From: Candidatus Fermentibacteraceae bacterium
GTDB taxonomy: Bacteria; Fermentibacterota; Fermentibacteria; Fermentibacterales; JCC-6
Length of the DNA: 64,000 bases
Assembly (NCBI GenBank): GCA_041750285.1
Contig: JBGSZS010000018.1
Span: 231,745 to 295,744, forward strand
Reading direction: 5' to 3'
Shown: positions 21,525 through 62,608 of the stretch, in pieces
Numbering within the stretch: the first letter of the stretch is position 1
Layout: each line of letters opens with the position of its first letter
The notes under the pieces: generated by a model
What the model saw: only the letters and a program-made list of their open reading frames with translations
Databases searched by the model: none
Told to the model about the DNA's origin: nothing
Position numbers and translations under genes: made by a program

Positions 21525-21625
21525 CGTCACCGTCTTCACCTCCGCGGCAACCGAATAACAAGCCTTAGTGTACATCATCTCCGGCACAAAACAAGGGGGC
21601 TGTGGTCTTTTATCCGAAGAGGATG

Positions 21626-21654
21626 TTGACACCGGAAGTCCGTGGGCATATACA
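21626..21654 (+). promoter_or_regulatory. Sigma-70-like promoter for the 21700 gene
   Basis: TTGACA, a 17-nt spacer, TATACA, then a GGAAGGAG RBS before the ATG. Confidence 0.5.
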
Positions 21655-21699
21655 TAACTTGCCATTTCGGCACAGCTTGTTTTTTGGAAGGAGTGAGGG

Positions 21700-40383: not shown

Positions 40384-40991
40384 CGTCCCCTCCGACCTCC
40401 CTCTTCAGCCCCCGGATGACCTTGACCCTGACCGGTCTGATAAGGTCCTGCCCCAGCCTGTACCCCTTCTGAAGGACCAGTTTCACTGCGTCGGAAGCCT
40501 CTTCCTCGGAGTCTTCAGCCATCATGGCCTCGTGGATGTTGGGGTCGAAGGGATCGCCCCGCGATGTTTCGACCTCGCTGAGCCCCTCCTTCTGAAGAAG
40601 GGATTCGAGGTGGGTGCCTATCTGAAGCAGCCCCGCAATGATCTCGCTCTCGGGGTGGCTTCCGTCCAGGGTTTCACGGGCCCTGTCGAAGTTGTCCAGA
40701 ACGGAGAGGAGCTCGGTCATCAGCTGCCTTCTGCCCTGGCTGATGAGGCGGTTGAAATCCCGGGCCTGCCTTTTCCTGTAGTTGTCGAACTCGGCTGCCA
40801 GACGTTTGTAGTCCTCCATGAGGCTGTTGTAGTCTTCGAGGGAGACCGGCGCGCCTTCTTCGTGGGATTGCTCCGCCTGCGGCGCGGCGGCAAGGTCCTG
40901 CAACGCCTCGATCATCTCATCGTTCTCGGCGCCGCGCCTTTGGGGTCCGGTGCTCCTTCTGGGGTCGTCGCCGGAGAGCTTCGTCTTACCG

Positions 40992-41005
<14 letters not shown>
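40376..41005 (-). CDS. grpE: Nucleotide exchange factor GrpE
   Basis: Internal start MSRRSGKT. Its ATG lies within the last codons of dnaK. GrpE signature [12 protein letters not shown]...[12 protein letters not shown]. Confidence 0.85.
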
Positions 41006-42899
<1,894 letters not shown>

Positions 42900-43005
42900 T
42901 TCAGTCCTCCGTTCCTTCGGGTTCCAAAATCTTCGCCATATCAGGAAGCACGGGGGCTCCTGACGGCACGATTACTGACATGCATAAAAGCAACATGCTT
43001 GCCAC

Positions 43006-43054
43006 TTGCCGCAATGTGGCGCATAAGATTGCGCTGTATTGTTTTATGCGGCAA
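43006..43054. promoter_or_regulatory. Nested inverted repeats in the dnaK/uvrA divergent intergenic region (candidate operator)
   Basis: TTGCCGCA atgtg GCGCA-taagat-TGCGC tgtattgtttta TGCGGCAA. An outer 8-bp IR encloses an inner 5-bp IR. No CIRCE or HAIR consensus. Confidence 0.4.
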
Positions 43055-43162
43055 CAAGCTTCTCCCCGGCACATGCGCCGCTTTTTCGTGGGGTCTTTGT
43101 GGCACGCAATTCCGTATCGGGGGTATATTTTTCCGATTATCCCGGGAAGGCGGTCCGGTTTT

Positions 43163-46175: not shown

Positions 46176-46547
46176 ATGATCTCGAGAACTGCTGCCCTTC
46201 TTGGTGTTCTTCTTGTTTCGGCCGGCTGCGGGAGTTCACCCAGTGACCCGGGAACCCAGGAACAGGGACCCGCGCTTGTCAGCCCCACTGACGGGGCTTC
46301 CGAGACCGGTCCCGAAGTGACTTTTGCCTGGGATGCGGTGACAGGAGCCACAAAGTACTATCACCAGGTTGCTTCAAACGCCTCGATGCAGAATCCTCTG
46401 GAAACCGTTGTCACCTCGACAGCGGCGACTGTCAGTCCGGGTGCTGCCGGAACATGGTGGTGGAGGGTTCGTGCTTCGGTATCGGGCCAATCCACCTACA
46501 CGCCGTGGTCGGCAATCTGGTCATTCACTCTGAACCAGCTACCCTGA
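46176..46547 (+). CDS. Small lipoprotein with an FN3/Ig-like domain, hypothetical
   Basis: MISRTAALLGVLLVSAGCG (lipobox) with a GGAGGA RBS. A TFAWDAVTGATKYY...WWWRVRA beta-sandwich pattern. Confidence 0.55.
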   Translation: MISRTAALLGVLLVSAGCGSSPSDPGTQEQGPALVSPTDGASETGPEVTFAWDAVTGATKYYHQVASNASMQNPLETVVTSTAATVSPGAAGTWWWRVRASVSGQSTYTPWSAIWSFTLNQLP

Positions 46548-48161
46548 GTTCGTCCTTCCTGAAGGATCTGCCGGCTGTTCACCGTATGCTGCCAGACCCG
46601 ACAACGACTTCAGCTGCCAGACCTGGTTGGTCCCGAAATCGCATACGTACTCGTACCTGTCAAGGAAACTGCTGTCCCGAAAGACAAAGCTCTCCTCCCA
46701 TTCCAGGAAGTACGCCACATCCCGGGATTCGAGGTACTGCCCGTAGTGCCCCGCGGGAAGCCCGAGTATCTCGGTATTCACCTTTCCGTCGGTATTGATG
46801 GTCCTGTCATGAAAATAGCCAAGCGTGCCCGACTGGCTGGCCCCGACCCATGTGTCCACGGAGACGTTCTCCCTGACCCAGCCCCAGTGGTACAGGTACA
46901 TGGGGTTGTATGGCTCTGAATAGGTGGAAACGGTAACCGCAAGGTTGAACAGAATCCCGCCGGCGAGCACTACCACGGTGTACCTGTCGCGAAGACGGTC
47001 CAGAACGGAGGCAAGAACGGCGACCGCCGCTATCGAGACAGGTATCAGGTACCGGTTCATGTACCACTCCACATTGAAGAAAAGCACGTAGAACAGAAAC
47101 AGCCCGAGCAGGAACAATGGGAAGAACGAAAGGTCCCTCCATGGGAGCATCTTCCGGAACTCACTTCCCTTGATGGTCCTTGATGCCATGAACGCGAACA
47201 CCGCCACTGCAGCGGCCTTGACGGCAAGCAGGGCGACCGATCTCACCGTGACGGAATATATGGCGCGCAACGGCACCCAGAGTACGAACGTGAGGTTGTC
47301 CAGTGTTACATGCGCTGCGTACCACAGGTTTCTCAGGATCTCGGGAATGATTGTCGAGGCATCAGCGGTGCGGCCCATTGTCTGCACCAGCCCGGAGATC
47401 GGCAGTGGGTTGCCGGTGAGCCCGATGTTGTAAAGCCACCAGGGCAGCGTGGCAAGCGCCCAGCCGGCAGCCCAGCGTAGCGGTCCCGAAACGAACCTTC
47501 GGAAGGCCCCTCTCTCCCCCCCTCCTTCCGCCGGTCCCGCAATGAACACGTAGTGTATGGCCAGTGCGGCGGCGAACAGGCCCGAATCGATCCTGGTCAG
47601 CGTGACGATTCCAAGGAAGACGCCGAACAGGACACCTGCAGGAAGACCGGGTCTGGCCCTGGCAGCGAAGCGCAGGTAGAGAATGGCTGCCAGCATGAGC
47701 ATCAGAAGGTAAAGGCCGGTCTCAAGACCGTTGGTGCTCTCCTTCATGATGTTGTACGAGCAGGCCCAGAGTGCGGCCGCGATCCATGCGGCCCGTCTGC
47801 GGCCCGTCAGGTAACGGATCAGGCCGAACACCGACACAACTCCCAATAGATGGATCATCAGATGAAGGCCGTGCACCAGCCTGAGAGCCTGGTACCTGTC
47901 CGGTGTCACGAGGTAGAGCAGTGAGCAGAGAAAGACGAAAACCGGTTGTATCCCGTTCGTCGGGATCTCGCCGTCGGATACGGAAAGCCCCTTTCCGATG
48001 GCCAGATTTCTGGACACGGTGAGCCCGTAGAATCCGTCATCCCGAAAAGGCCTGTCCGCAAGCATTTCAGTGGGTCTGAAAATCAGGGCGACATGAATGA
48101 GCATTCCGACGGCAAAATTGACAAGTATCATGAATCGGGGCAGCCGGCTCACGGTTTTCAT
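46539..48161 (-). CDS. GT-C fold membrane glycosyltransferase (family 39 / ArnT / PMT-like)
   Basis: More than 10 TM helices, an N-terminal DxD-like region and overall resemblance to dolichyl-phosphate-mannose-protein mannosyltransferase-like proteins. Internal start MKTVSRL with a GGAGAG RBS. Confidence 0.55.
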   Translation of the reverse strand: MKTVSRLPRFMILVNFAVGMLIHVALIFRPTEMLADRPFRDDGFYGLTVSRNLAIGKGLSVSDGEIPTNGIQPVFVFLCSLLYLVTPDRYQALRLVHGLHLMIHLLGVVSVFGLIRYLTGRRRAAWIAAALWACSYNIMKESTNGLETGLYLLMLMLAAILYLRFAARARPGLPAGVLFGVFLGIVTLTRIDSGLFAAALAIHYVFIAGPAEGGGERGAFRRFVSGPLRWAAGWALATLPWWLYNIGLTGNPLPISGLVQTMGRTADASTIIPEILRNLWYAAHVTLDNLTFVLWVPLRAIYSVTVRSVALLAVKAAAVAVFAFMASRTIKGSEFRKMLPWRDLSFFPLFLLGLFLFYVLFFNVEWYMNRYLIPVSIAAVAVLASVLDRLRDRYTVVVLAGGILFNLAVTVSTYSEPYNPMYLYHWGWVRENVSVDTWVGASQSGTLGYFHDRTINTDGKVNTEILGLPAGHYGQYLESRDVAYFLEWEESFVFRDSSFLDRYEYVCDFGTNQVWQLKSLSGLAAYGEQPADPSGRTNSG

Positions 48162-48242
48162 CACACTCTCCATTCAGGAAGAAGCGGATCTCCGTTCAAC
48201 CGCACCAACGGCAATAATCGTTCGTAAATCATATACTATGTA

Positions 48243-48323: not shown

Positions 48324-49097
48324 TCAGACGGGGATGGAGACGGGCGGATCGCCCTGGACCTCGATGTCCGGCAGCATGGTGAGGTTGCGGGGCACGCCCC
48401 GGGGAGCCAGGGCCTGGGCGGGGTCGGGGATCAGGCCGGTGGCATAGCCCAGCCTGCTCATTGCGAGCGGGGAAGCGACAATGATAACGCCCTTCCGGCT
48501 GCCGGCCGCGAGGCGGTGGAGTTCCGCGGCGAGCGGCATGATGCCGGTGTGATGCCTGATGGAGTCGGCGTAGAAGCTTCTGGCCCGGCCCGAGAGGATG
48601 TCTTCCGAGAATGTCGTCTGACGTGCACCAACATCGCCGACGAGAACCGATGTCCTGACCACGAGGGCGTCGGGGTTGTGCCTTGTAACCGCGATGTCCC
48701 CAAGAAGCTTGGTCCAGCCGTAGAAGGACATCGGCACTGCCGGCGAGTTCCTTTTGTAGGGAGGAATGCCGCCCGACCAGACAAGGTCGGTGGAAACATG
48801 AAGCATTCTGATGCGGTTCTCCCTGCAGTAAAAAGCGAGTTCGCCGGGCCAGACGCTGTTGAGCAGGAAGGCCCGCACAGGGTCGGCAAGGCATCCGCCC
48901 GTGGAACTTTCCGCAGCGCAGTTTATCACTGCACCGGCGCCTTCCGGCAGCAGGGCTTCCGGAGGGGTTGTCGTGAGGTCGGCCCCAATGGTTCCCGAAT
49001 CACCGCTTCGGCTCAGGCAGAGAAGGCTGCCGCCCCGCGATGTTCTTCGCAGGGCGGTGCCGAGTCTGCCTGTGGCGCCGAAGAGGACCGTTGTCAC
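48324..49097 (-). CDS. NAD(P)-dependent sugar-nucleotide reductase/epimerase (dTDP-4-dehydrorhamnose reductase RmlD-like)
   Basis: The GTG start gives MTTVLFGATGRLG (Rossmann GxxGxxG). Short-chain RmlD-like length. Start lies 1 nt after the hflC stop. Confidence 0.55.
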   Translation of the reverse strand: MTTVLFGATGRLGTALRRTSRGGSLLCLSRSGDSGTIGADLTTTPPEALLPEGAGAVINCAAESSTGGCLADPVRAFLLNSVWPGELAFYCRENRIRMLHVSTDLVWSGGIPPYKRNSPAVPMSFYGWTKLLGDIAVTRHNPDALVVRTSVLVGDVGARQTTFSEDILSGRARSFYADSIRHHTGIMPLAAELHRLAAGSRKGVIIVASPLAMSRLGYATGLIPDPAQALAPRGVPRNLTMLPDIEVQGDPPVSIPV

Positions 49098-49098
49098 C

Positions 49099-50187
49099 CT
49101 AGTCCTGGAAGCGCCCGGGAGTCGAGAGGAGAAGGTTGAAAACACCCTCGGTGCTCAGTACCGCGGCATCGGTGGAATCGATGACCGCCTCGAGGGCTTC
49201 GAGTGACCGCGTGAACCTGTAGAAGTCGGGGTAGGCCTGGTAGGCCCTGGCGTAGATGGCAGCGGCGGTGCTGTCGGCCCTTCCCTGGATTGCCAGGGCG
49301 AGCCTCTGGGCCTGGCTCGAGATGCTGTCCACCTTCAGGTCCGTCTCGGCGAGAATGGTTCTGGCCATGCGGTGACCCTCGGCCCTGTACCTTGTGGAGA
49401 TGCGGTTCCTCTCCGCCTGCATCCTTGAAAACACCGCGGCCTGATTCTCGGCGGGCAGGTCCGCCCTCTTGATCCTAATGTCCACGATGTGGATGCCGTA
49501 CTGCGAGGCCAGCCTGCGGCTGTTCTCGGTGACCCTGTTCAGTATCACCTCGCGGCCCTCGCCTGCCGGAACCCTGAGCATGGGAATGATCTCGACGACC
49601 TCGCCGTCGGCCATGATGATGTCTCGGGTGGAGTCGGACAGGGTCATGCTGTTCACGAGCTGAACGTAGGAGTTGAGACCGACAGGGTCGTTGGTGCTGC
49701 GAACGATGTTGATGAGGTCGCTTTTGCCCAGTTCCTGCCTGAGTTCGGAGTAGATGACGTCATCCAGCCTGTCGAGCGCCTCCCTCTCCGTTCGCACGCT
49801 CTGGAGGAAAAGAAGGGGGTTCTGAATCCGCCACCTGGCGTAGCAGTCGGCCTGAATGTGCTTCTTGTCTCGGGTGACGACATCGGCGGGGTCGTCGTCG
49901 TATTCGAGCACACGGTCGTCGAGGATGGTCACCTGCTGAAGGAACGGAACCTTGACGTAAAGCCCGGCGCCTTCGGTCAGGGAAACATCGGGGGCGTTGG
50001 CGTCCATCCACTGCTGAAGCGCAGCCAGTTCATCATCGGTCCGGTTGCCCACGATTACCCGGATGGGTTTTCCCAACTGCAGGACCACTGCCTGCTGTGT
50101 CTCGTTCACTATGAAGAGGGTACCGGTGAGCACCATTATCGCGACCGTGACAACGATCACGATCAGGCATCCGCTGAACTTCCTCAT
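49099..50187 (-). CDS. hflC: Protease modulator HflC (SPFH/band 7)
   Basis: N-terminal TM helix and an SPFH domain. Paired with hflK upstream, with a 4-nt overlap. Confidence 0.8.
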   Translation of the reverse strand: MRKFSGCLIVIVVTVAIMVLTGTLFIVNETQQAVVLQLGKPIRVIVGNRTDDELAALQQWMDANAPDVSLTEGAGLYVKVPFLQQVTILDDRVLEYDDDPADVVTRDKKHIQADCYARWRIQNPLLFLQSVRTEREALDRLDDVIYSELRQELGKSDLINIVRSTNDPVGLNSYVQLVNSMTLSDSTRDIIMADGEVVEIIPMLRVPAGEGREVILNRVTENSRRLASQYGIHIVDIRIKRADLPAENQAAVFSRMQAERNRISTRYRAEGHRMARTILAETDLKVDSISSQAQRLALAIQGRADSTAAAIYARAYQAYPDFYRFTRSLEALEAVIDSTDAAVLSTEGVFNLLLSTPGRFQD

Positions 50188-51170
50188 CTCACGCCCCCCG
50201 TTCCGAGACCGTAGTGGGTAAGCGCTCCGGCGTCGCCGTCCACGATGGTCAGGTCTATCTGCGCGAGGACGGATTCGAGGGTTTCGAGGTGGAGCCGGAT
50301 TGCGGTGGTCTGCGGGTTCTTGCGGTACTCTTCGGCAACGGCAATGAACCTGTCTGCGTCGCCGAGAGCCCTGTTGATCCTCACGGCGGCATAGCCCATG
50401 GCTTCGTTGACCATCGTCACCGAATCGGCCCTGGCTTCGGGTATAACCTGGTTCCGGTAGGATTCGGCCTCGTTCAGGTAGGCCTGCATGTCCTCCCTGG
50501 CGGTGGCCACGTCCTTGAATGCGAAGAAGACCTGGTCGGGAGGTTGAACGTCCTTGAGCTGCACCGCCACGATGTTCACACCCATGCCGTAAAGGTCGGC
50601 CAGGGACTGAACCTGCGCCTGGATGCGGATCTGGAGGTCGAGCTTGCCGGTGGTTAGCACCGCGTCGATTGCGTTGTCGCCTATCACCTGCCTGATGCTG
50701 GCCTCGGTGATGTCACGCAGCGTGGCCTCGGGACCCCTTACGTTGAAAAGATAGGCCCTTGCGTCGGTGATGCGGTACTGAACGATGGCCGAGACGTTTA
50801 TGATGTTCTCGTCGCCGGTGAGCATCTGGGCTTCGGAGAGCATCTCGGCGTCGTTGTCGAAGCCCCTGTAACGCTGGGGATCGGTGTTCGGTATGGACCG
50901 GTAGCCGAACTCGATGCGCTGGACCACGTTCACGTCGGGCTTGTAAACGGTCTGGATGGGCCAGGGAAACTTCAGGTGGAAGCCCGGCCCGGTTGTGGCC
51001 GTGAAACGCCCGAACGTGAGGATCACACCCTCCTGCTCAGGGCCCACGATGTAAAAAGGCCCCGCGGTGAGAAGCCAGATCAGCAGAATAACTCCGACGA
51101 TGATCTTCCCTGTGGACTTCGGAAGCATGAACTCCAGTGGGTTTCCCCTCAAAAGAGCACCCCCTTTCAA
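50184..51170 (-). CDS. hflK: Protease modulator HflK (SPFH/band 7)
   Basis: TM helix plus SPFH domain (GPEQEGVILTFGRF...). A TTG start overlaps the upstream stop (TTGA); an internal ATG (MLPKSTGK) with GGAG is the alternative. Confidence 0.8.
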   Translation of the reverse strand: MKGGALLRGNPLEFMLPKSTGKIIVGVILLIWLLTAGPFYIVGPEQEGVILTFGRFTATTGPGFHLKFPWPIQTVYKPDVNVVQRIEFGYRSIPNTDPQRYRGFDNDAEMLSEAQMLTGDENIINVSAIVQYRITDARAYLFNVRGPEATLRDITEASIRQVIGDNAIDAVLTTGKLDLQIRIQAQVQSLADLYGMGVNIVAVQLKDVQPPDQVFFAFKDVATAREDMQAYLNEAESYRNQVIPEARADSVTMVNEAMGYAAVRINRALGDADRFIAVAEEYRKNPQTTAIRLHLETLESVLAQIDLTIVDGDAGALTHYGLGTGGVR

Positions 51171-52504
51171 TCCTGTTCGTCGCCGGGGGATCCAAGTTTC
51201 CGCTGAAGGGTACGCCTTCCCATGCCCAGCAGCATGGCGGCCTGGGTGCGGTTGCCCCCGGTGATCGCGAGTGTACGCTCAACAAGCATGTCTTCAGCTT
51301 CCTGAATGGTCACGGGAAGCTCCAGCACGAGCCGGTCGGTTCCCTCGCCCGAAGCAGGAGTGATCTCGGGCGGCAGGTCGGCCAGCGTTATCCTTTCCCG
51401 GCACATGATGAGAAGGCTTTCCATCATGTTCTTGAGCTGTCTGACGTTGCCCGGCCATGAGTAGGCCTTGAGTGATTCCATGACCTCGGGGGCGATCTCC
51501 GGCATTGGAAGGTCATGCCTGTCCGATGCCTGACGGAGAAGTGTAAGGGCAAGCAGGGGAATATCGGGCCGCCGCCTGCGAAGGGGAGGAAGGTGTATCT
51601 CCACCACCTTCAGACGGTAGTACAGGTCCTCGCGGAACGTGCCGGCCCTGACCATCGCCATCAGGTCCCTGTTGGTGGCGGCAATGAGCCTAACATCAAC
51701 GGGTGTGGTTCGATTGCCGCCGAGCCTCGTTATCCGCTCCTCCTCAAGCACCCGCAGAAGCTTTACCTGCACCGGAAGGGGAATTTCACCGATCTCATCG
51801 AGCATCAGTGTTCCGCCGTCGGCTGCTTCGAACTTCCCGGCGCGGGGGCTGTCCGCCCCGGTGAAGGCGCCGCGGTCGTGCCCGAAGAGCTCGTCCTCGA
51901 GAAGGGTCTCGGGGATGGCCGAACAGTTCATGACGAGGTACTCGCCCTTCCTGCCGCTCTGGTTGTGGATCCTGCGGGCGAGTATGTCCTTTCCCGTGCC
52001 GCTTTCACCGGTGATGAGAACCGTTGCCTTTATGGGGGCCACCCGCTTCACCATCTGAAGAACGTCTCCCATGGCCCGGCTTCGGTGGAGGATCTCGGAT
52101 GGCTCTTCCGCTCTCGCGGGTCTCGCCGCGGCGGTTCGGGAAAAGAGGCTGCGGGAAGAGCGGGAGAAGGCCAGTTGAACGGCCTGCCTCCAGCCTTCGC
52201 GGGACTCGGGATCGAGAAGGATGTCGACAACGCCGGCCTTCATCCAGGCCACCGCCTCCTGGGCGCTTATCATCCTGCCGTAGATTATCACGCTGGCGTC
52301 GGTGTTGGCCCTTGAAAGTGTGTCGAGGAACGTTGACATGAGAAGGTCGTCGGTGCTGCTGCTGACCGCCAGAACGTTGACCGAACGTGAGCGGACCCTT
52401 CTCAGGGCACCCCGGGCGGTCCTCTCCTCGGTCGTGGTGCACCCGAGTTCGGAAACCAACGCCCTGAGCCTGGCGACCCGGTCCTTGTCGGGGTCGACGA
52501 ACAT
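51167..52504 (-). CDS. Sigma-54-dependent transcriptional activator (bEBP) with an atypical, possibly non-phosphorylatable receiver-like N-domain
   Basis: The internal start MFVDPDKD gives 445 aa. AAA+ sigma-54 interaction domain (VLITGESGTGKDILAR, GAFTGA, ELFGH) and a C-terminal HTH (NRTQAAMLLGMGRRTLQRKL). The N-terminal domain shows Ser at the expected phospho-Asp position (VLAVSSS). The upstream 1 kb of the track ORF is rejected. Confidence 0.75.
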   Translation of the reverse strand: MFVDPDKDRVARLRALVSELGCTTTEERTARGALRRVRSRSVNVLAVSSSTDDLLMSTFLDTLSRANTDASVIIYGRMISAQEAVAWMKAGVVDILLDPESREGWRQAVQLAFSRSSRSLFSRTAAARPARAEEPSEILHRSRAMGDVLQMVKRVAPIKATVLITGESGTGKDILARRIHNQSGRKGEYLVMNCSAIPETLLEDELFGHDRGAFTGADSPRAGKFEAADGGTLMLDEIGEIPLPVQVKLLRVLEEERITRLGGNRTTPVDVRLIAATNRDLMAMVRAGTFREDLYYRLKVVEIHLPPLRRRRPDIPLLALTLLRQASDRHDLPMPEIAPEVMESLKAYSWPGNVRQLKNMMESLLIMCRERITLADLPPEITPASGEGTDRLVLELPVTIQEAEDMLVERTLAITGGNRTQAAMLLGMGRRTLQRKLGSPGDEQD

Positions 52505-52530
52505 TACGGTTCCACGGCCAAGGCTTGTCG

Positions 52531-54246
52531 TCAAACCCGGCTCCTTTCCCTGGCCCTTTCCTTCATGACAAGAAACGGAGGCATCACCAGGGCGTCGATG
52601 CCTGTGCCGTAGAAACACCTGAGGGCGTCTGCCGGCGTGTTGACGATGGGCTCTCCCCTGACGTTGAAGGAGGTGTTCATGAGCACCGGAACCCCGGTGA
52701 GTTTCTCGAACTCCCTCATCACGTCGTAGTAGAAGGGGTTCACATCCCGCGACACTGTCTGGACACGGCCCGTCATGTCGACGTGGGTTACGGCGGGGAT
52801 GACCTTCTCCATGCCCGGTACGACCGGGTATGTCTTGATCATGTAGGGACTCTCCGAGCAGCCCTGGAAATAGGTGGGCGCGTCCTCCACCGGGCAGACC
52901 GGAGCGAACGGTCTGAACCCCTCGCGAAGCTTGATGATCTCGTTGACTATGTCCTTCATCTCCGGACGTCTGGGGTCGGCCAGAATGGATCGGTTGCCAA
53001 GCGCCCGGGGGCCGAACTCCATCCTGCCCTGGTAAAGCCCGACCACGAAGCCCCTCTCCACAAGGGAGGCGGTGAGCGCCTCGAGGTTTTCCGGGCGTGA
53101 GTAACCGACCCGGGAACCCACCAGCGCGGATTCGACCTGCTCTGCCGTATGGCCGGGGCCAAGGAACATATGTTCCGGGGGGGTGAGGGGAACGCCGCCG
53201 TACACTTCCATGTGCACCGCCACAGCTGCACCGACACTCGTGCCGGCATCGTGCGAGGCGGGGAACGGGTGAACCTGCCGGAAACCGGCTTCCCTTTCGA
53301 TGACGCCGTTCATCACACAGTTGAGTGCAGTGCCGCCCGCCATGGCCAGTATATCGGTCCGGGAGAGCCCGCGAAGGTGTTTCGCCATGGCCAGCCCCGC
53401 TTCCTCCAAAACCTTCTGGGCCGATGAGGCTATGTTCTCGTGCCGTGAGTCGAGGGGTTCTCCGGACTTGCGCGGCCCGCCTATGATGTTCAGTACTTCC
53501 CTGGAGAAAACCGAATGATGAACCCCGCGGCAAATGTCGAGAAGCCCGTGGTCTATGCGTACCGAATCCCTGCGCGATATGAGGATGCGGCGGAAAAGGT
53601 CTGCATACACGGGTTTTCCGTAGCTGGCCAGACCCATTACCTTGTACTCGTCGCTGTCGGGCTTGAAGCCCAGAAAGGTCGTGACCGCGCTGTAGAAAAG
53701 CCCTGTGGAGTGGGGAAGCCTTGTCGCGGAAAACCTGCGGAGGCGCCCCGCAACGATCTCACCCAGCATGCCCGAGTGGATCTCGCCGGCGCCGTCGAGC
53801 GTGAGTACCGCGGCGTCGCGGCAACCCGCTCCGAACCATGCCGACCAGGCGTGGGCGTCGTGGTGTTCGATGAAGTGAAAGGAGGGATTCGCATCGGGGC
53901 CGAATGTTTCACGGTAAACCCGGGGAACGCCGGCCATGCGTCTGGCCCCGCCGACCTGCCCCGCGAAGAAACCCATTGCGCCCGGTTTGCCCAGGTACCG
54001 TGGAAGCATGCGGAAGGCTTCGCCAAGAACCATGGATGGCTTCATGTAATAGGCCACGTGAGCAATGTCGCGGGGTTTGAGACCCGCTTCGGAAATCAGA
54101 TGGGCAATGGTTCTCGACGGGAATGAAGAATCATGCTTCCTGCGGGTGAAGCGTTCCTCTTCAGCAGCGCCCGCGAGCCTTCCGTCGAGCAGGAGGCATG
54201 CCGCCGAATCGTGTTTGTGGCAGTTGATCCCGAGAATGGCTTTCAT
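52531..54246 (-). CDS. Carbamoyltransferase (NodU/CmcH/TobZ family)
   Basis: Internal start MKAILGINCHKHDSAACLL (carbamoyltransferase N-domain) and a C-terminal YrdC-like / Kae1-like region. ATGA overlap with the GT2. Confidence 0.75.
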   Translation of the reverse strand: MKAILGINCHKHDSAACLLLDGRLAGAAEEERFTRRKHDSSFPSRTIAHLISEAGLKPRDIAHVAYYMKPSMVLGEAFRMLPRYLGKPGAMGFFAGQVGGARRMAGVPRVYRETFGPDANPSFHFIEHHDAHAWSAWFGAGCRDAAVLTLDGAGEIHSGMLGEIVAGRLRRFSATRLPHSTGLFYSAVTTFLGFKPDSDEYKVMGLASYGKPVYADLFRRILISRRDSVRIDHGLLDICRGVHHSVFSREVLNIIGGPRKSGEPLDSRHENIASSAQKVLEEAGLAMAKHLRGLSRTDILAMAGGTALNCVMNGVIEREAGFRQVHPFPASHDAGTSVGAAVAVHMEVYGGVPLTPPEHMFLGPGHTAEQVESALVGSRVGYSRPENLEALTASLVERGFVVGLYQGRMEFGPRALGNRSILADPRRPEMKDIVNEIIKLREGFRPFAPVCPVEDAPTYFQGCSESPYMIKTYPVVPGMEKVIPAVTHVDMTGRVQTVSRDVNPFYYDVMREFEKLTGVPVLMNTSFNVRGEPIVNTPADALRCFYGTGIDALVMPPFLVMKERARERSRV

Positions 54247-55166
54247 GCGTTGTTCCGTTCCGTATTGCCGAACAGGAGCTTCAGGGCTTTTGTGCAGTAT
54301 GCCGCCCTGAACCTTCCATCCCTTCTTCGAAGGGCGGGGTTGAGTGATCCGGCAGCCATGCGCCCCAGCATGAGCAACGCCATCCACACCCGGAATGCCG
54401 CCCGGGAGCCGGCGCCGGCATGCTTGGACAGAAACCTGATCTTCGCTGGAATATACCGCAGGTACACATTCTCACCAAACTTGCGTTTCGCGGAAGCTCC
54501 CTCCAGATGCACCACCTGTGAGGAAGGGATGAACCAGGTTTCCCAGCCCGCCTTGAGCAGGCGGTACTGAAGGTCGGTTTCCTCGTGGTAGAAGAAGAAA
54601 TCCTCGTCGAACCCCCCCACAGCCCTGAGGGCATCGGTCCTCACCGCCATCACCGCTCCGACGAGCCAGTCGCACCTCATTTCCGTGTCATGTGCGTTGT
54701 GCCTGTATGAACGGTGGCGAAGAAGCGGCAGGTGCTCGATGATCACCTTTCCGGGGAAGGGGAAGTCACGCATGGACTGCTGGAGGCTTCCGTCGGGCCA
54801 GAGCAGCCTGGGCCCGGCAAGGCCGGCCCGGGGATGTCTGAGCAGTCCATCGACAAGGCTTGCGATGCTGCCCTCACGGAACAGCGTATCGGAATTGGCA
54901 ATGACCGTGACATCGGTGTCAACGCCACGCATGGCTTCGTTCACGCCTGCTGCGAAACCAAGGTTCACCGGGCTTCTGACCAGTCTGAAGCCCGGGTTCC
55001 GCCCCATCAGCTCCAGCGCGTCACGATCCGATCCGTCCTCGGATCCGTTGTCGAACACGAGCAGCTTCCCCCCGGACGCTGCAACCTGTTCAAGGACCGA
55101 TCCCAGCATTCCCGGCAGTATTTCCCTGCCGTTCCAGTTCAGCACCAGGAGGGTGTATCCGTGCAT
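54243..55166 (-). CDS. Glycosyltransferase family 2
   Basis: GT-A fold with LLVLNWNGREIL and DxD region (VFDNGSED). Start overlaps the M23 stop. Confidence 0.75.
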   Translation of the reverse strand: MHGYTLLVLNWNGREILPGMLGSVLEQVAASGGKLLVFDNGSEDGSDRDALELMGRNPGFRLVRSPVNLGFAAGVNEAMRGVDTDVTVIANSDTLFREGSIASLVDGLLRHPRAGLAGPRLLWPDGSLQQSMRDFPFPGKVIIEHLPLLRHRSYRHNAHDTEMRCDWLVGAVMAVRTDALRAVGGFDEDFFFYHEETDLQYRLLKAGWETWFIPSSQVVHLEGASAKRKFGENVYLRYIPAKIRFLSKHAGAGSRAAFRVWMALLMLGRMAAGSLNPALRRRDGRFRAAYCTKALKLLFGNTERNNA

Positions 55167-56269
55167 CACACCCCCCTGAGAAGTGTATCGAGGCTGTCCC
55201 TGACGGCCTGGAAACGGACCAGCTCGTCTCCCTCCAGCGCCCGGCGCCTGCTGCCGAGATAGATGTAGGGATCGACGGGGTTGTCGTTCGGGTCGTTTAT
55301 CTGGTAGTGCAGATGGCTGGCGTAGGATCTGCCCGTGTTGCCGACTGTTCCTATCTGGGCGCCCTGCTCGACGGTCCTTCCCGGAGAGACCCCTGCCGAG
55401 ATCTCATCAAGATGAAGGAACACCTCCCTGTAGCCGCAGAAGTCTATCTCCACGCATCTACCGTTGTAGTCGGCGTTCCAGTCCACCCTGTTCACCCGCC
55501 CGCCGAGGGTTGTCCTTACCGGAACGCCTGTGGGCGCCTTGAAGTCAACCCCGTGGTGCGTTCCCGAACCCCGGATCTCTCCGAAAATGCCCGTGACCTC
55601 CTCGAAGGTCGAAAGTGGCATGCGGTTGAGAAGCCTCACCACCTCGGTTCCGTTGGCGTACCAGATGCTCGGGAAGTTGTCGCCGGTCTTGTGAAAGACA
55701 TAGACACTGAAGCCGCTGTTCGTTGAACCCGCCAATGGGATGTACCGCAGGGCCGCAACAGTGTTCTCCCTGGAGCCGGGCCGGGTGGAGTAGAGGATCC
55801 TGAGCGAATCACCTGCAATCAGGCCTGTCCAGGGGTTTATGTCCCACCAGAGGTATCTCACGCAATGCGCTCCAAGGACGTCGGGAGCAACCCCGGTGGC
55901 GCCCTGAAGGCTTCCGTACAGGGAACCCCTTATCTCGACGGCCAGAAGGTTCAGATCCGCCGGCAGCACGGGAAGCGTTTCCGGAAGGGAATCGGTAATG
56001 GCGGAATCGGGAGGGAGACCTGTGGAATCCGCCAAAATCGATGATGTGGTGTCAGAGGCGAGCAAGTCCGGGAGAAGCATGGCTGTGGAATCCGTTATCT
56101 GGTGAAAAATGGGCTCGTGGACCTGGGGGTCGTCGGGGATTCCCACATAGTCACCGGCCCGCAGAACAAGCACATCATCCCCTTCGGGCGGGGATACGCA
56201 GCCGGAGAAGATGACCGTCGTCAATAATACGCACAGAAGTCCGGTGGTAAATGCGGGAGAGGATGTCAT
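55166..56269 (-). CDS. M23 family metallopeptidase lipoprotein
   Basis: Internal start MTSSPAFTTGLLCVLLTTVIFSGC (lipobox). Active M23 motifs HHGVD and SHLHYQI. Confidence 0.7.
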   Translation of the reverse strand: MTSSPAFTTGLLCVLLTTVIFSGCVSPPEGDDVLVLRAGDYVGIPDDPQVHEPIFHQITDSTAMLLPDLLASDTTSSILADSTGLPPDSAITDSLPETLPVLPADLNLLAVEIRGSLYGSLQGATGVAPDVLGAHCVRYLWWDINPWTGLIAGDSLRILYSTRPGSRENTVAALRYIPLAGSTNSGFSVYVFHKTGDNFPSIWYANGTEVVRLLNRMPLSTFEEVTGIFGEIRGSGTHHGVDFKAPTGVPVRTTLGGRVNRVDWNADYNGRCVEIDFCGYREVFLHLDEISAGVSPGRTVEQGAQIGTVGNTGRSYASHLHYQINDPNDNPVDPYIYLGSRRRALEGDELVRFQAVRDSLDTLLRGV

Positions 56270-56308
56270 AATATTGACTGTCCCTTCGGTTGCGTGTATC
56301 GTTGAAAT

Positions 56309-57673
56309 ATGAACGAGGAATCCACCAACCGGTACAGGGTTCTGGTGGTCGACGACGATCACCAGGTTCTCGACCTTGTCAGCGAGGTCCTTCGGATGGC
56401 GGGTTTCCAGAGCGCTTCCGCCATGAACGCAAGGCAGGCGCTTGCAAACCTTCGCCGCGAGCAGTTCCATCTCCTCATAACCGACGTACGCCTTCCCGAC
56501 TCAAGCGGAATCGACCTGCTCCGGATCGTACGTGACAAGTATCCCAATCTCCCCGCGATCGTGGTGACCGGCTACGCCTCCATAGATGGAACGAAGGAGG
56601 CACTGAACCTCGGGGCAGTCGACTACATTCCCAAACCATTCACGCCATCGCAGTTGCTGAGCGCAGTCGAAAGAGCCATTGCCTCATCCGGCGGCCAGGG
56701 GGGCTCAACTGCGGGCAAGGGCTTGGTCAGCCACAGCCGGAAGATGAAAAGTGTGCTCGATCTGGTCCGCCAGGTTGCGGATACGGGCAGCACCGTACTG
56801 ATCACAGGAGAGAGCGGCACGGGCAAGGAACTGGTCGCAAGGCTTCTTCACCGCCAGAGCAGAAGGGCGGCAATGCCGTTTGTCAGCGTGAACTCGGGAG
56901 GCATACCCGAAGGGCTTCTGGAGAGCGAGCTGTTCGGTCACATCAAGGGTTCCTACACCGGCGCCCATTCGACAACCATCGGCAGGTTTCAGGCCGCCGA
57001 GGGGGGAACACTGTTCCTCGACGAAGTGGGAAACATGAGCATGGCCATGCAGGTCAAGCTTCTTCGAACGCTTCAGGAACGTGAGATCACTCCGGTCGGG
57101 GCCAACAACTCGGTCAACATCGATGTCAGGCTCGTAGCGGCAACCAACTCCGATCTCGAAGCCGGAGTGAGGGCCGGAAGTTTCAGGGAAGACCTGTACT
57201 TCAGGATCAACGTCATCGACATCCACATTCCTCCCCTGCGGGAGAGGCGGGAAGACATCATCCCCCTGGCCGAGCACTTCCTTGCTGCCCATTCGGCAGG
57301 CAGGGACATCGATCTCTTCCTCTCACCGCAGACTGCGGCCCTTCTCACCACATACGCCTGGCCCGGAAACGTCAGGGAGTTGGAAAACGCCATGGAAAGG
57401 GCATCGGTGCTGTCTCCGGGCGAGATACTGCCCTCACATCTGCCCTCCAGGCTGGCTGCGGAGTTTCCGGGGGAGATATCCCTTCCGTCTGAAGGCGGCG
57501 GGCTGGACGAAATTGTCGCTGCGGTTGAACGGGTCTATATTCTCAACGCGCTCAGGAATTGTGGAGGGGTCAGATCCAGGGCAGCCAGACTGCTTGGCAT
57601 CAAAAGGACCACGCTTCTGGCCAGGATGCGCAGGCTTGGGCTCGAGCACGAGCTGGAAAGGGCGCCGGAATGA
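56309..57673 (+). CDS. Sigma-54-dependent response regulator (NtrC family)
   Basis: REC domain (VLVVDDD...LLITDVRLPD), AAA+ (VLITGESGTGKELVAR, GAHSTTIG, ELFGH) and an HTH. Confidence 0.85.
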   Translation: MNEESTNRYRVLVVDDDHQVLDLVSEVLRMAGFQSASAMNARQALANLRREQFHLLITDVRLPDSSGIDLLRIVRDKYPNLPAIVVTGYASIDGTKEALNLGAVDYIPKPFTPSQLLSAVERAIASSGGQGGSTAGKGLVSHSRKMKSVLDLVRQVADTGSTVLITGESGTGKELVARLLHRQSRRAAMPFVSVNSGGIPEGLLESELFGHIKGSYTGAHSTTIGRFQAAEGGTLFLDEVGNMSMAMQVKLLRTLQEREITPVGANNSVNIDVRLVAATNSDLEAGVRAGSFREDLYFRINVIDIHIPPLRERREDIIPLAEHFLAAHSAGRDIDLFLSPQTAALLTTYAWPGNVRELENAMERASVLSPGEILPSHLPSRLAAEFPGEISLPSEGGGLDEIVAAVERVYILNALRNCGGVRSRAARLLGIKRTTLLARMRRLGLEHELERAPE

Positions 57674-59658
57674 GCCCCAATAGGACGCGTGTACTTGTCA
57701 TCGACGACGACCCCCAGATCCTTGATGTGTGCCGTGAAGGGCTTCTTGCCGGCGGCTACGAGGTTACCACCGCAGCCACAGGCTCCGCAGCTCAGGCTGC
57801 CCTGTCCAAAACGGCGTTCTCACTGGTTCTTTGCGACGTTCTCCTGCCGGACACCAACGGGCTTGAACTGCTTGAGTACATGACGTCCCGTTTCCCCGAC
57901 ACTTTTGTGATAATAACGACCGGTCACGCTTCGATCGATCTTGCGAAAGAGGCGATGCGTCAGGGCGCCTTCGATTTCATCTCGAAGCCATACACAATGG
58001 GAGATCTGCTTGACACGGTCCGGCGTGCCGAGATCTCCCAGAGAAGCCTCTTCAGCGACATCGCCTACAAAGAGCTGAAAATGCTCTACGAACTCACCAC
58101 GGAGACCTGGCTGTCCGATGTCTCCGTAAGCTCCTTCCTCGGCGTATACGCCGCAAAGATCCAGGAGAGCTTCTCCGCCGATGCCGTTCGCATCTATCTT
58201 ACCGAATCCCCCCGGAGCACCAGGCTGAAGCTCATGGCCCAGTCGGGTATGAGCGGCATATCCGACGAGGTCTCGTGGTACTTCCTTGCCGGAAGGACCA
58301 TGCAGGCCGGAGGCGAGGTCATGATCGATCCCGGGGCCGAGAACCCAGATCTGGCGGGGAACAGCTCGGCCTTCATGGGAATCGTAATCCCCGCGGGAGA
58401 CATCCACCTCGGGGTTGTGCTCGCGTCGAGGCAGGGTCACCGCGACAAGTTCAAGACCCGCGACCTCAAGATGCTTGAGCTTTATTCGGCCCAGATGGGC
58501 AACCAGCTCCACAACCTCAGGATGACACAGGATCTCCTTCGAAAGAACAGGGAACTCGAACAGATCAACATCCTCACCCATGAATTCAGCACCGACCTCA
58601 ACCCGGAAAAGGTGGCCCGGCTCGCCGCATCTGGGATCCGGTGCTTCGCCCCCTTCGATGTGCTGGCTCTTTTCATTCCCTGGAGCGACGCCTCCCACTT
58701 CAGCTACATCTCCGCCGATGCGTCTCTCGATCCGGACAGGGTTGTCAAAGCGGTGAGGAAAGAGCTTTCAGCCATGGTTCACGCCGATGACATCGAACGG
58801 TACATGTGCAGGGCCGTATACCATACCTTCACTGCGGGCAGGAAGAAGGAGTTCGACCGCCCCCCCGAGTTCCAGGTGCTGTCCCTTCCCGATTACGGAA
58901 GCATCCAGGGAAACATGCTCATGGGAACGTTCAGCGGTGAACATCGGCTGACCAGCCAGTCCCGCTTCACTCCGATCCTCATCAGAAACGCTCTGGCGGC
59001 CCTGAACAACGCGCTTCTCCACCAGGACAGCAAACGGAACTATCTGCAGACCATTGTCGCAATGGCACAGGCTGTTGACGCGAAAGACCCCTACACCCAC
59101 GACCACTCCAGGAACGTCACGGCCTACACGCTTGCCATTGCTGACGGCATGGGCATTTCGGGCAGGGATCGCGAACTCCTCTGGAGCGCGGCCCTTCTGC
59201 ACGACATCGGCAAGATAGGCATCCCCGAATCAATACTGAACAAACCGGGCCGCCTCTCCGAAGAGGAATTCAGGATCATCAAGTCTCACTCTGAAAAGGG
59301 CTGCCAGATACTGAAACCGGTGACCGCCTTCCAGGGCATTCTGGAAATAGTGAGACACCATCACGAGAGGTTCGACGGCAACGGGTATCCGGACGGTCTC
59401 AGGGAGAAGGCCATTCCCCGCCAGGCCAGGATCCTGACAGTCGCCGACGCCTACGACGCAATGAGCAGCGACAGGGTATACCGCAAGTCACCCGGGGCAG
59501 ACTACGCCATCGACCAGCTCGTTCAGCGCTCAGGAACCCAGTTCGATCCCGAGATAGCCGGCCTGTTCATGAGGATACTCCGAAGCCGCTCACCCGAGGC
59601 GATCCTCGAGAGCTACAACAGGGCAATGGGGGAGGGAATCCCGGTTCCGCCTGCATGA
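57670..59658 (+). CDS. Response regulator with GAF and HD-GYP (c-di-GMP phosphodiesterase) domains
   Basis: Internal start MSPNRTRVLVIDDDPQ (REC) with an ATGA overlap with the NtrC stop. Central GAF-like region. HD-GYP motifs HDIGKIGIP and HHERFDGNGYPDGL. Confidence 0.8.
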   Translation: MSPNRTRVLVIDDDPQILDVCREGLLAGGYEVTTAATGSAAQAALSKTAFSLVLCDVLLPDTNGLELLEYMTSRFPDTFVIITTGHASIDLAKEAMRQGAFDFISKPYTMGDLLDTVRRAEISQRSLFSDIAYKELKMLYELTTETWLSDVSVSSFLGVYAAKIQESFSADAVRIYLTESPRSTRLKLMAQSGMSGISDEVSWYFLAGRTMQAGGEVMIDPGAENPDLAGNSSAFMGIVIPAGDIHLGVVLASRQGHRDKFKTRDLKMLELYSAQMGNQLHNLRMTQDLLRKNRELEQINILTHEFSTDLNPEKVARLAASGIRCFAPFDVLALFIPWSDASHFSYISADASLDPDRVVKAVRKELSAMVHADDIERYMCRAVYHTFTAGRKKEFDRPPEFQVLSLPDYGSIQGNMLMGTFSGEHRLTSQSRFTPILIRNALAALNNALLHQDSKRNYLQTIVAMAQAVDAKDPYTHDHSRNVTAYTLAIADGMGISGRDRELLWSAALLHDIGKIGIPESILNKPGRLSEEEFRIIKSHSEKGCQILKPVTAFQGILEIVRHHHERFDGNGYPDGLREKAIPRQARILTVADAYDAMSSDRVYRKSPGADYAIDQLVQRSGTQFDPEIAGLFMRILRSRSPEAILESYNRAMGEGIPVPPA

Positions 59659-61016: not shown

Positions 61017-61310
61017 ATGGAGAAAACGGGGAGGGGGCGTTACATCGCCCTTCTCCTCGCCGTTCTGCTGCTGGTGACCGCCGCCCTCGTACTTTTCAAC
61101 CGGAACGGCTTCCTCGCCAACAGGCGGCTGCAGCTCCAGATGCAGGAGACGGCGAGAGAGATCGATTCAAGGGCGGCCCTGCTTGACTCGCTGGAGGAGT
61201 GTGCCCGAAGGCTGACCACCGATTCCCTCTTCATGGAAACCCGCGTCCGGGAAGTGCTGGGGTGGGGAAGACCCGATGAGCACATCGTGAGGTTCGTGGA
61301 ACCGGAGTGA
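61017..61310 (+). CDS. ftsB: Septum formation initiator family (FtsB/DivIC-like)
   Basis: Internal start MEKTGRGRY. One TM helix plus a coiled coil. Positioned after eno as in many bacteria. Confidence 0.6.
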   Translation: MEKTGRGRYIALLLAVLLLVTAALVLFNRNGFLANRRLQLQMQETAREIDSRAALLDSLEECARRLTTDSLFMETRVREVLGWGRPDEHIVRFVEPE

Positions 61311-62608
61311 AAAAGACATCCCTTTCCATTCCGCTGCTGTCGATTCTATGCACGGCACCCCTGGTGGTGATGATCCTCTCTGCCAGCTTCATGCCCGACT
61401 CCGACAGGGCCGCCCACTCCCTGTGGGCGGGGCAGCTCCTGCGGGAAGGCAGCCTTTCGATCTCCCCCGACGGCGTGGTTGACGACTGGAAGGCATTCTA
61501 CCCCAACACGGTGCCAAAACCCGCCGACCTGTTTCTCGGTGTCATGGGCACCCTGTCCGGGCCGTTCCTTGAGGGCATGTTATGGACGGCGCTTTCCTGG
61601 GCGGCGATCTTCGGCGCCATGAAAGCTGCGGGTGGCGGATTGCCAGGTACCGCTACGGGGGTGTTCCTGGGTCTCAACCCGGTCTTTTTGAACCTCTGCA
61701 TGACAAGAAGCCCCGCAGTGCCTTTCATGGCTCTCATTTACACCGGCGTCTCGGGCAATTCCCCCGCAGCATTCGCCCTGTCATCCCTGGTGCGCCCCGA
61801 GGGGTTCATCTTCGGGGTATGGAAGGCACTCAGGGCGAGAAGTTTCAAGGCAGTTCCCATCCTGGTCCTGTCTGCGGGAGTATGGGCTCTTTTGAACTCA
61901 CAGGCGTGCGGAGACCTTTTCTGGTCGGGGCGGGAGGTCCGTTACTGCGTTGCCGCAATGGGTTACGGAACTCCGAACGTGATCACCTACGTTCCATGGC
62001 TCTTCCTGAGGGCGGTGGCGGTTCTCGGCCCGCTTCCCCTCGCGGCACTGCTTTGCAGGGCGGCGAGCTGGGACCTCGGGCGTCCCGTCCTGCTCAACTT
62101 TTTGTTTCTCTGGGTCGGGCTGGCTTTCGGAAGCCTCGTTCTCCCCCGGTACGCCGATCAGATACTGCTTCTTGCGGTTCCCTTCGCCATGGGCGCTGTG
62201 CTCGGCTCGTTCCGCGGCATGGGCCCGGTGGCGGCGGTTGCTCTCTGTTTGGCAGGAGCGGCGCTTCCATGGGCGGACACCATCGATTCCTGGGGCACCG
62301 AGGCGGCGCTCGACCGTAACCTCGGGGCCGTCTCGGCATCACTGCCTGACGGCATTATCGCGGCCAACGAACTTGTCATTCCAAGACTGGCCATTCTCGA
62401 CGGAGGAAGGGGCTATCCGGACAGGTATGTCGCACTGGACAGGGCGGTTTGGGAGGGCGCCGGGGAGGACGACCTTCTGGGCCACGGGGTGACCGCAATC
62501 GTTATCTTCAGGGATGACTTCTACCTCTCGGACCATGCCGCAGCATGGATCGACACACTGTCGGGAAGGATCCCTTTGTTCGACATATCACCACCCCGGT
62601 CTCGATGA
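61307..62608 (+). CDS. Polytopic membrane protein, hypothetical
   Basis: 433 aa and about 10 predicted TM segments. Overlaps both neighbours by 4 nt. Confidence 0.5.
   Translation: MKKTSLSIPLLSILCTAPLVVMILSASFMPDSDRAAHSLWAGQLLREGSLSISPDGVVDDWKAFYPNTVPKPADLFLGVMGTLSGPFLEGMLWTALSWAAIFGAMKAAGGGLPGTATGVFLGLNPVFLNLCMTRSPAVPFMALIYTGVSGNSPAAFALSSLVRPEGFIFGVWKALRARSFKAVPILVLSAGVWALLNSQACGDLFWSGREVRYCVAAMGYGTPNVITYVPWLFLRAVAVLGPLPLAALLCRAASWDLGRPVLLNFLFLWVGLAFGSLVLPRYADQILLLAVPFAMGAVLGSFRGMGPVAAVALCLAGAALPWADTIDSWGTEAALDRNLGAVSASLPDGIIAANELVIPRLAILDGGRGYPDRYVALDRAVWEGAGEDDLLGHGVTAIVIFRDDFYLSDHAAAWIDTLSGRIPLFDISPPRSR

Follow-up and report, generated by a model that had tools for sequence, protein, structure and literature searches.

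The stretch of DNA analysed here (the window), 64,000 nucleotides of contig JBGSZS010000018.1 from a Candidatus Fermentibacteraceae bacterium, carries a compact block of envelope and regulatory genes. On the minus strand, a string runs from an M23 peptidase gene through a family 2 glycosyltransferase (GT2) and a carbamoyltransferase (CT) to one of two sigma-54 activators, or bacterial enhancer-binding proteins (bEBPs), which we call bEBP2; divergent from this string lie the genes for the other activator, which is NtrC-like (bEBP1), and for a protein with a receiver (REC) and an HD-GYP domain. All of these proteins fall into known families, and the regulatory features likewise vary familiar themes; what has not been described before is the arrangement, which is confined to Fermentibacterota. 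We tentatively favour a reading, to which we give slightly less than even weight, in which the locus consists of three ordinary units side by side, whose regulators would be wired to the sigma-70-type gap between the divergent genes and to a sigma-54 promoter in front of the nearby dnaK operon. Members of Fermentibacterota, a phylum without cultured representatives, are common inhabitants of anaerobic digesters and of sediments. If the reading is right, it provides the first concrete, testable regulatory wiring for this phylum: at a sigma-70 promoter, a phosphorylatable NtrC-type regulator would use an operator of the FleQ-box type, and the chaperone operon would depend on sigma-54 and have a candidate activator of its own.

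Conservation of the block and of its cis-elements

The analysis documents gene content, synteny, motifs and cis-elements, together with their conservation. About 35 Fermentibacterota loci were gathered by looking up gene contexts, by scanning the genomes of species representatives and by searching metagenomes with the N-domain of bEBP2, and the gene order in them was mapped by tblastn. The close homologues of CT (53-92% identity) come from organisms named Candidatus Fermentibacteria, Sabulitectum or Aegiribacteria. The neighbourhood described in the initial annotation is indeed conserved in relatives, being syntenic in every locus examined at 37-95% protein identity. The recurrent order is rsgA, often a membrane protein gene, divIC, eno, the HD-GYP gene and the NtrC-like gene, and divergently from these M23, GT2 and CT (both optional), bEBP2, hflK, hflC and an RmlD-like reductase gene, with the divergent pair uvrA and dnaK usually within a few kb after the latter. 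M23 is present in every locus that covers its position, the RmlD-like gene is syntenic in all loci, and bEBP2, hflK and hflC are adjacent in nearly all of them, the exception being the rearranged type represented by L006, L105 and L110. Some loci (L006, L090, L099) lack the HD-GYP gene. In L112 (6680-7120) the NtrC-like gene has decayed to a remnant of about 20 codons; HD-GYP and M23 are retained there, as is the palindrome described below, in a copy with one mismatch.

GT2 and CT are the variable part of the block. Among 25 loci with both M23 and bEBP2, 14 carry GT2 and CT, eight carry CT only and three carry neither, as does L113 (four such loci counting it); GT2 is missing in 11/25, and CT is absent in three to four loci. 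The pair behaves as an insertable, facultative cassette between M23 and bEBP2. Around 76 CT homologues in other phyla (37-50% identity), an M23 gene was found nearby in none (0/76), an adjacent GT2 in one (L004) and a bEBP within 10 kb in four. This near-absence of M23 and bEBP elsewhere identifies the gene combination as a lineage-specific syntenic block of Fermentibacterota and not a portable system. The cassette itself is not special to this locus: in the unrelated context of L004, a 40%-identical GT2 lies immediately upstream of a 50%-identical CT as a lone pair.

The first cis-element was found by aligning the gaps between the NtrC-like gene and M23, a gap of only 39 nt in the window. It is a 14-bp palindrome (GTCA-N6-TGAC) that contains the M23 start codon (CAT, 56267-56269) and occurs as a single copy in the 64 kb of the window, where 0.75 copies are expected by chance. 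In the orthologous loci, it is found essentially once per locus and always in the gap (22 loci exactly, three with one mismatch), the only other exact copy lying inside hflC in L087. Over 21 distinct sequences the arms carry 1.9 bits per position, compared with 0.33 in the flanks. In at least five distinct loci (those named are L002, L008, L006, L091, L092 and L096), the arm at the M23 start is out of frame with or upstream of that start and is nevertheless conserved, and on this comparison of sequences we take the palindrome to be a genuine cis-element.

The other arm of the palindrome overlaps the -35 box of a sigma-70-type promoter for the NtrC-like operon, as well as the 5' end of the M23 operon. 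This promoter was called as a consensus match, in which TTGACA or TTGACT, 16-19 nt, a TAnnnT-like box, 4-9 nt and ATG follow one another; the pattern recurs in most of the 21 distinct loci, with TTGTCA instead in two and a weak -10 box in a few. In the window, the ATG of the NtrC-like gene comes 6 nt after the -10 box. This short distance, together with the lack of a Shine-Dalgarno sequence before the gene both in the window (56297-56311) and in the orthologous loci, suggests that the NtrC-like mRNA is leaderless or nearly so. The TTGAC arm was also considered as a -35 box pointing towards M23; this was rejected, as no consistent -10 box follows it by eye.

The second cis-element belongs to the dnaK operon, 8-13 kb from the activators. 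A scan for TGGCAC-N5-TTGCW, scored out of 11 and with the GG and GC required, gave TGGCAAGCATGTTGCT as the sole 10/11 match in the window (128 kb counting both strands). A 10/11 site (TGGCA-N6-TTGCT) stands 80-140 nt upstream of dnaK or hsp20-dnaK in 11/11 loci that include the region, the window among them, and the chaperone operon appears, from these sites, to be sigma-54-dependent in Fermentibacterota. Upstream of the promoter lies a further element, TGYGYCACAWWWGCACC, whose distance from the -24 box is exactly -100 in eight distinct loci (L002, L006, L008, L090-L092, L096 and L098) and -102 in the window. Each locus has it once, 535 kb of Fermentibacterota loci contain it at no other place, and it is a candidate enhancer for the dnaK promoter. 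Fermentibacterota belongs, as does Bacteroidota, to the FCB superphylum. Sigma-54-dependent chaperone genes are a predicted trend in Bacteroidota and Planctomycetota (PMC12316311), which makes a sigma-54 promoter of dnaK plausible and not unprecedented. The predicted cases likewise have a -24/-12 promoter before dnaK, grpE or dnaJ (and hsp20); the position-fixed -100 element and the conserved pseudo-receiver activator nearby set Fermentibacterota apart, and for this phylum the promoter is newly described.

The same scan bears on the initial annotation, which had suggested a sigma-54 control of the envelope module. Within 400 nt upstream of these operons no conserved site of 8/11 or better was found in 22 loci; the M23 and NtrC-like operons have two isolated, non-conserved 8/11 matches, one in L096 and one in the window. 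No sigma-54 site was found upstream of bEBP2 or hflK either, and lowering the threshold to 7-8/11 at the locus brought up nothing relevant.

Regulators and envelope enzymes

bEBP2 is a sigma-54 activator by its motifs (Pfam Sigma54_activat 2.5e-68 and HTH_8; Walker A GESGTGK and GAFTGA intact). The N-domain is homologous to receivers (Response_reg E=0.0017 in the window, 8.6e-10 in the orthologue from L003), and in it, as the initial annotation had proposed, Ser takes the place of the phospho-acceptor Asp: when the N-domains of 10 orthologues and three canonical paralogues were aligned, Ser48 fell at that position and was invariant in the 10 orthologues. The Thr/Ser of canonical receivers is replaced by an invariant Tyr75, and the Lys by Asp, Arg, Gln or His; S48, Y75 and G76 are all invariant. 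The invariance of Ser48 implies that Ser is under selection, and a pseudo-receiver of this kind suggests an input other than Asp phosphorylation. The C-terminal domain is a Fis/NtrC-type helix-turn-helix (HTH), with Fis as best PDB match (4e-5) and ZraR also matching; FleQ is not among the matches.

The NtrC-like protein has a canonical receiver, in which the DD, D, T and K positions are all present on alignment (Response_reg 1e-27, Sigma54_activat 3e-68, HTH_8; GESGTGK). Its AAA+ loop reads GSYTGA, and GAFTGA or GAYTGA in orthologues. When its C-terminal 79 aa were compared with PDB chains, the best match was FleQ (8p53_C, E=2.2e-7), followed by NtrC (1.4e-4). As the initial annotation had observed, no histidine kinase is encoded in cis, no protein with HisKA or HATPase_c being found among the ~50 open reading frames (ORFs) scanned in the 64-kb window.

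The REC-HD-GYP protein (Response_reg 6e-25, HD_5 2.6e-39) carries LLHDIGK and HHERFDGNGYP in its translation and matches the NCBIfam model for NosR-family response regulator cyclic di-GMP (c-di-GMP) phosphodiesterases at 1.4e-64, below the 400-bit cut-off; it is a putative c-di-GMP phosphodiesterase. The GAF domain that had been assigned to it is sub-threshold in the window (GAF_3 E=0.011), but the middle regions of 7/7 orthologues match GAF models (best E=4.5e-6), which supports the assignment. As in RpfG-type regulators, a receiver with an intact Asp is joined to an HD-GYP domain with its HD and HHExxDGxGYP motifs; unlike in these, the two are separated by a GAF-like, divergent region that spans about 330 aa, and the gene is co-transcribed with that of an NtrC-type regulator and not of a sensor kinase.

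FleQ of Pseudomonas is a bEBP that acts at the sigma-70 promoters of pel, psl and cdrA via FleQ boxes. The palindrome GTCA-N6-TGAC has the same 14-bp format as GTCaNTAAAtTGAC, the FleQ box consensus, which is also given as GTCAaAAAAtTGAC (PMC6120874), and it too overlaps a sigma-70-type promoter of an envelope or polysaccharide-type operon. The HTH of the NtrC-like protein is nearest to that of FleQ, and one of the activators, bEBP2, has a degenerate receiver, as FleQ itself has a phosphorylation-incompetent one (PMC10723142). Here, however, these two traits sit on separate proteins in a distant phylum, and across the 64 kb of the window and the 21-kb loci no FleN-like (MinD-like ATPase) or flagellar genes turned up. 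Neither activator has the full set of c-di-GMP contacts, which in FleQ are R144 of the linker, R185 after Walker A, E330 and R334 (PMC10723142). Of these, bEBP2 retains R185; R144 falls in a three-residue gap, and Thr and Gln replace E330 and R334. In the NtrC-like protein, aligned by eye, His and Ala stand in place of E330 and R334. A FleQ-type c-di-GMP site was rejected for both activators because the contacts R144, E330 and R334 are not conserved.

Among the envelope proteins, the M23 (LytM-type) peptidase is a probable lipoprotein, its N-terminal signal ending in FSGC. Its zinc motifs HxxxD (HHGVD) and HxH (HLH) are intact inside the Pfam match at residues 237-334, from which it is probably an active endopeptidase, and it has weak NCBIfam similarity to the DD-endopeptidases ShyA and MepM. 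GT2 is a soluble protein of 308 aa (Pfam Glycos_transf_2 and Glyco_tranf_2_3, about 6e-14). CT consists of Carbam_trans_N (3.8e-45, 155 bits) and Carbam_trans_C (1.6e-68, 230 bits), with no further domains found, neither the acylphosphatase nor the zinc-finger domain of HypF among them. These two domains, and PDB matches that are class III only (7xb6 at 1e-91, NovN, GdmN and TobZ; range 1e-77 to 1e-91, with 7xb6/8hiu best), support the earlier assignment of CT to the NodU/TobZ class as opposed to HypF/Kae1.

Class III enzymes form carbamoyl-AMP from carbamoyl phosphate and ATP and then pass the carbamoyl group to a hydroxyl. In GdmN the general base is H27 and the iron ligands are H133, H137, D156 and D333 (PMC9633730); these correspond to H12, H128, H132, D151 and D333 of CT, by HMMER alignment position and motif and not by structure, and are invariant in 14 orthologues. 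On this correspondence we regard the catalytic residues of CT as intact. Like NodU, CmcH, TobZ, NovN and GdmN, CT combines a Kae1-like N-domain with a YrdC-like C-domain and keeps the iron ligands and the general base. The characterised members tailor Nod factors or antibiotics; CT instead falls in a widespread, uncharacterised clade of ~570-aa proteins (37-45% identity, many phyla), for which the contexts inspected outside the phylum were a large polysaccharide cluster (L005) and the lone pair of L004.

Proposed wiring and its alternatives

In the reading we favour, the first unit is the divergent gap: the phosphorylatable NtrC-like regulator would bind the palindrome, autoregulate its own operon and gate the opposite M23 operon, both at sigma-70 promoters. 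The FleQ-like HTH and the FleQ-box format of the palindrome point to this regulator as the binder, and its mode of action would resemble that of FleQ at the pel and psl exopolysaccharide promoters without the protein being FleQ. It would be phosphorylated by an unlinked kinase, and the co-translated HD-GYP regulator would be a parallel output that lowers c-di-GMP. In the second unit, the M23 operon would remodel peptidoglycan and, where GT2 and CT are present, add a carbamoylated sugar to some envelope acceptor via carbamoyl-AMP. The third unit would be bEBP2, co-transcribed with hflKC and with a receiver that Asp phosphorylation can no longer reach. This protein would most likely activate the sigma-54 promoter of dnaK(-grpE-dnaJ) through the -100 element, since that promoter is the only sigma-54 promoter in the neighbourhood; two activators would then be matched by two distinct conserved cis-elements. 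Together, bEBP2, hflKC and the dnaK operon would form a protein-quality-control regulon.

PspF has no N-domain and is held by PspA. The control envisaged for bEBP2 resembles that of PspF, in that it would not be governed by Asp phosphorylation, is co-transcribed with membrane-associated stress or quality-control proteins (hflKC) and would have a stress operon as its target. Unlike PspF, bEBP2 keeps a full-length pseudo-receiver with an invariant Ser, its partners are SPFH proteins and no psp genes are present.

The pairing of regulators with sites, like all the biochemical activities, is something we infer from sequence, and for the pairing the grounds are proximity and HTH similarity to a few solved structures. 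Several further observations weigh against the three-unit reading. Inspection of the gap sequences by eye yielded no promoter for the M23 operon. The FleQ consensus has been deemed unreliable genome-wide in other Pseudomonas species (PMC6120874), and the -100 element could serve the divergent uvrA promoter instead, for example as an SOS box. Moreover, the whole region of ~20 kb is syntenic, including enolase, divIC and rsgA, so that conserved order alone is no proof of functional coupling. This last point leads to an alternative that we consider unlikely but give real weight, namely that no regulatory relation ties the regulators to their neighbours. The bEBPs would then have their sigma-54 promoters far away, a different activator would work at the dnaK promoter, and the palindrome would amount to a -35 box next to the context of a start codon. 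The order of the housekeeping genes (eno, divIC, rsgA, uvrA and dnaK) is indeed kept phylum-wide, the left arm is TTGACA and can be accounted for by the -35 box alone, and in about half of the loci the right arm falls on the M23 start codon, in many of them with a Thr codon after it. Against this alternative, the right arm, TGAC, equals the -35 arm in conservation (about 2 bits per position), also in loci where it lies upstream of the M23 start or out of frame; the stop/start overlaps point to co-transcription; and it is unlikely that the sole sigma-54 promoter within 10 kb of two such activators has nothing to do with either.

It is also conceivable, though we think it improbable, that the FleQ analogue is bEBP2, which would bind the palindrome and make expression of the M23-GT2-CT operon respond to c-di-GMP. 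The phosphorylation-incompetent receiver of FleQ (PMC10723142), a weak match of the L003 orthologue to the Pfam FleQ domain (E=0.023), the FleQ-box format of the palindrome and the HD-GYP gene in the locus would all fit. Against this, the c-di-GMP contacts R144, E330 and R334 are not conserved in bEBP2, the FleQ-nearest HTH is that of the NtrC-like protein and not that of bEBP2 with its Fis and ZraR matches, no FleN-like partner was seen in the locus, and several loci keep bEBP2 without the HD-GYP gene. Of the initial annotation, the observations are confirmed and the interpretation is supported in part. Its model, spelled out, is one dedicated system in which both activators directly transcribe M23-GT2-CT, a glycan or cell-wall module, from sigma-54 promoters and under c-di-GMP control. 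The tight coupling of the genes and the conserved adjacency of the activators, HD-GYP, M23, GT2 and CT speak for it; the operons, bEBP2 and hflK have no conserved -24/-12 site, no c-di-GMP receptor site is identifiable in the activators (the FleQ contacts being missing), GT2 and CT are variable and hence dispensable, and M23 and bEBPs are all but absent around CT homologues in other phyla. We consider this model very improbable. For the scanning of genomes, the lesson is that an operon does not depend on sigma-54 just by having two sigma-54 activators beside it, and that promoters need to be searched for.

A more ambitious reading, and a long shot in our view, extends the third unit to heat shock. 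Other bacteria use sigma-32 or HrcA circuits for this response; here sigma-54 and bEBP2, bound to the -100 enhancer, would replace them in heat-shock and quality control. bEBP2 may then be gated by HflKC/FtsH, by chaperone titration or by Ser phosphorylation, and the NtrC-type regulator and the HD-GYP protein may tie both the bEBP2 operon and the M23/carbamoyl-glycan module to an external signal.

Gene layout and surrounding genes

An ORF map and Pfam searches agree with the ORFs, gene order, overlaps and domain content originally annotated, including the TTGA overlap of the hflK start with the activator stop and the translational coupling of the NtrC-like and REC-HD-GYP genes through ATGA; the gap between CT and bEBP2, given as 27 nt, measures 26 nt. 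The minus-strand string extends beyond the genes first described, through hflK, hflC and the RmlD-like reductase (48324-51170), and within each string the stop/start overlaps argue for co-transcription. HflK and HflC, encoded directly downstream of bEBP2, are modulators of FtsH. The RmlD-like reductase (Pfam RmlD_sub_bind 7e-23; TIGR01214 rmlD 3e-26, below cut-off) has the motifs GATGRLG and YGWTK. Coordinates are collected in the table.

Table. Genes and cis-elements of the block and of the dnaK operon; positions refer to the window unless a locus is named.
Feature	Position	Strand	Remarks
M23 gene	55166-56269	-	Pfam Peptidase_M23 2.9e-23
GT2 gene	54243-55169	-	start and M23 stop share TGATG
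CT gene	52531-54246	-	ATGA overlap with GT2 stop
bEBP2 gene (sigma-54 activator)	51167-52504	-	26-nt gap after CT
hflK	50184-51170	-	TTG start at 51170 overlaps bEBP2 stop (TTGA); Pfam Band_7
hflC	49099-50187	-	Pfam Band_7; SPFH/Band-7
RmlD-like short-chain reductase gene	48324-49145	-	last conserved gene of the minus-strand string
NtrC-like activator gene (bEBP1)	56309-57673	+	divergent from M23; ATGA-coupled to REC-HD-GYP gene
REC-(divergent GAF)-HD-GYP gene	57670-59658	+	start ATGA-coupled to NtrC-like gene, at 57670
dnaK-grpE-dnaJ chaperone operon	39385-42899	-	Pfam HSP70, GrpE, DnaJ
14-bp palindrome GTCATAATATTGAC (GTCA-N6-TGAC)	56265..56278	.	candidate operator in the 39-nt gap between NtrC-like gene and M23
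Sigma-70-type promoter, NtrC-like operon	56274..56302	+	-35 TTGACT (56274-56279), 17-nt spacer, -10 TATCGT (56297-56302)
Putative sigma-54 -24/-12 promoter TGGCAAGCATGTTGCT	42989..43004	-	90 nt upstream of dnaK
Candidate enhancer (upstream activating sequence) GCGTGCCACAAAGACCCC	43090..43106	-	weaker copy of element TGYGYCACAWWWGCACC
Second, better copy TGCGCCACATTGC	about 43009-43024	-	about 20 nt upstream of the -24 box
dnaK sigma-54 sites, other loci	L002 20015-20030, L006 17357-17372, L008 19631-19646
dnaK sigma-54 sites, other loci	L090 17133, L091 18179, L092 18178, L093 18268
dnaK sigma-54 sites, other loci	L096 18136, L098 18152, L104 18109

Just beyond rsgA, some loci (L003 269-2745, L006 1447-3920, L002 1-725) encode Wza-like (Poly_export), Wzz-like and ornithine/aspartate carbamoyltransferase-family proteins, the first two placing a polysaccharide-export pair near the block in some lineages. 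In the window, the block is flanked by genes for two large polytopic membrane proteins, of 544 aa (46539-48173, minus strand) and 433 aa (61307-62608, plus strand), for neither of which Pfam or NCBIfam gave a match, even at E<=5. Many loci have the gene for the 433-aa protein in synteny, between divIC and rsgA; the position of the 544-aa gene is not conserved, and with neither synteny elsewhere nor database support the candidacy of its product as a GT-C glycosyltransferase was dropped.

A second M23-family peptidase gene (34028-35158, minus strand) lies between metK and holB (DNA polymerase III delta') and is unrelated to the locus. Upstream, an RCC1-repeat protein and a homologue of C25 (gingipain-like) peptidases are encoded at 20349-21818 and 25933-27399, both on the minus strand; a C25 peptidase also neighbours the GT2-CT pair of the unrelated locus L004 (11721-14117).

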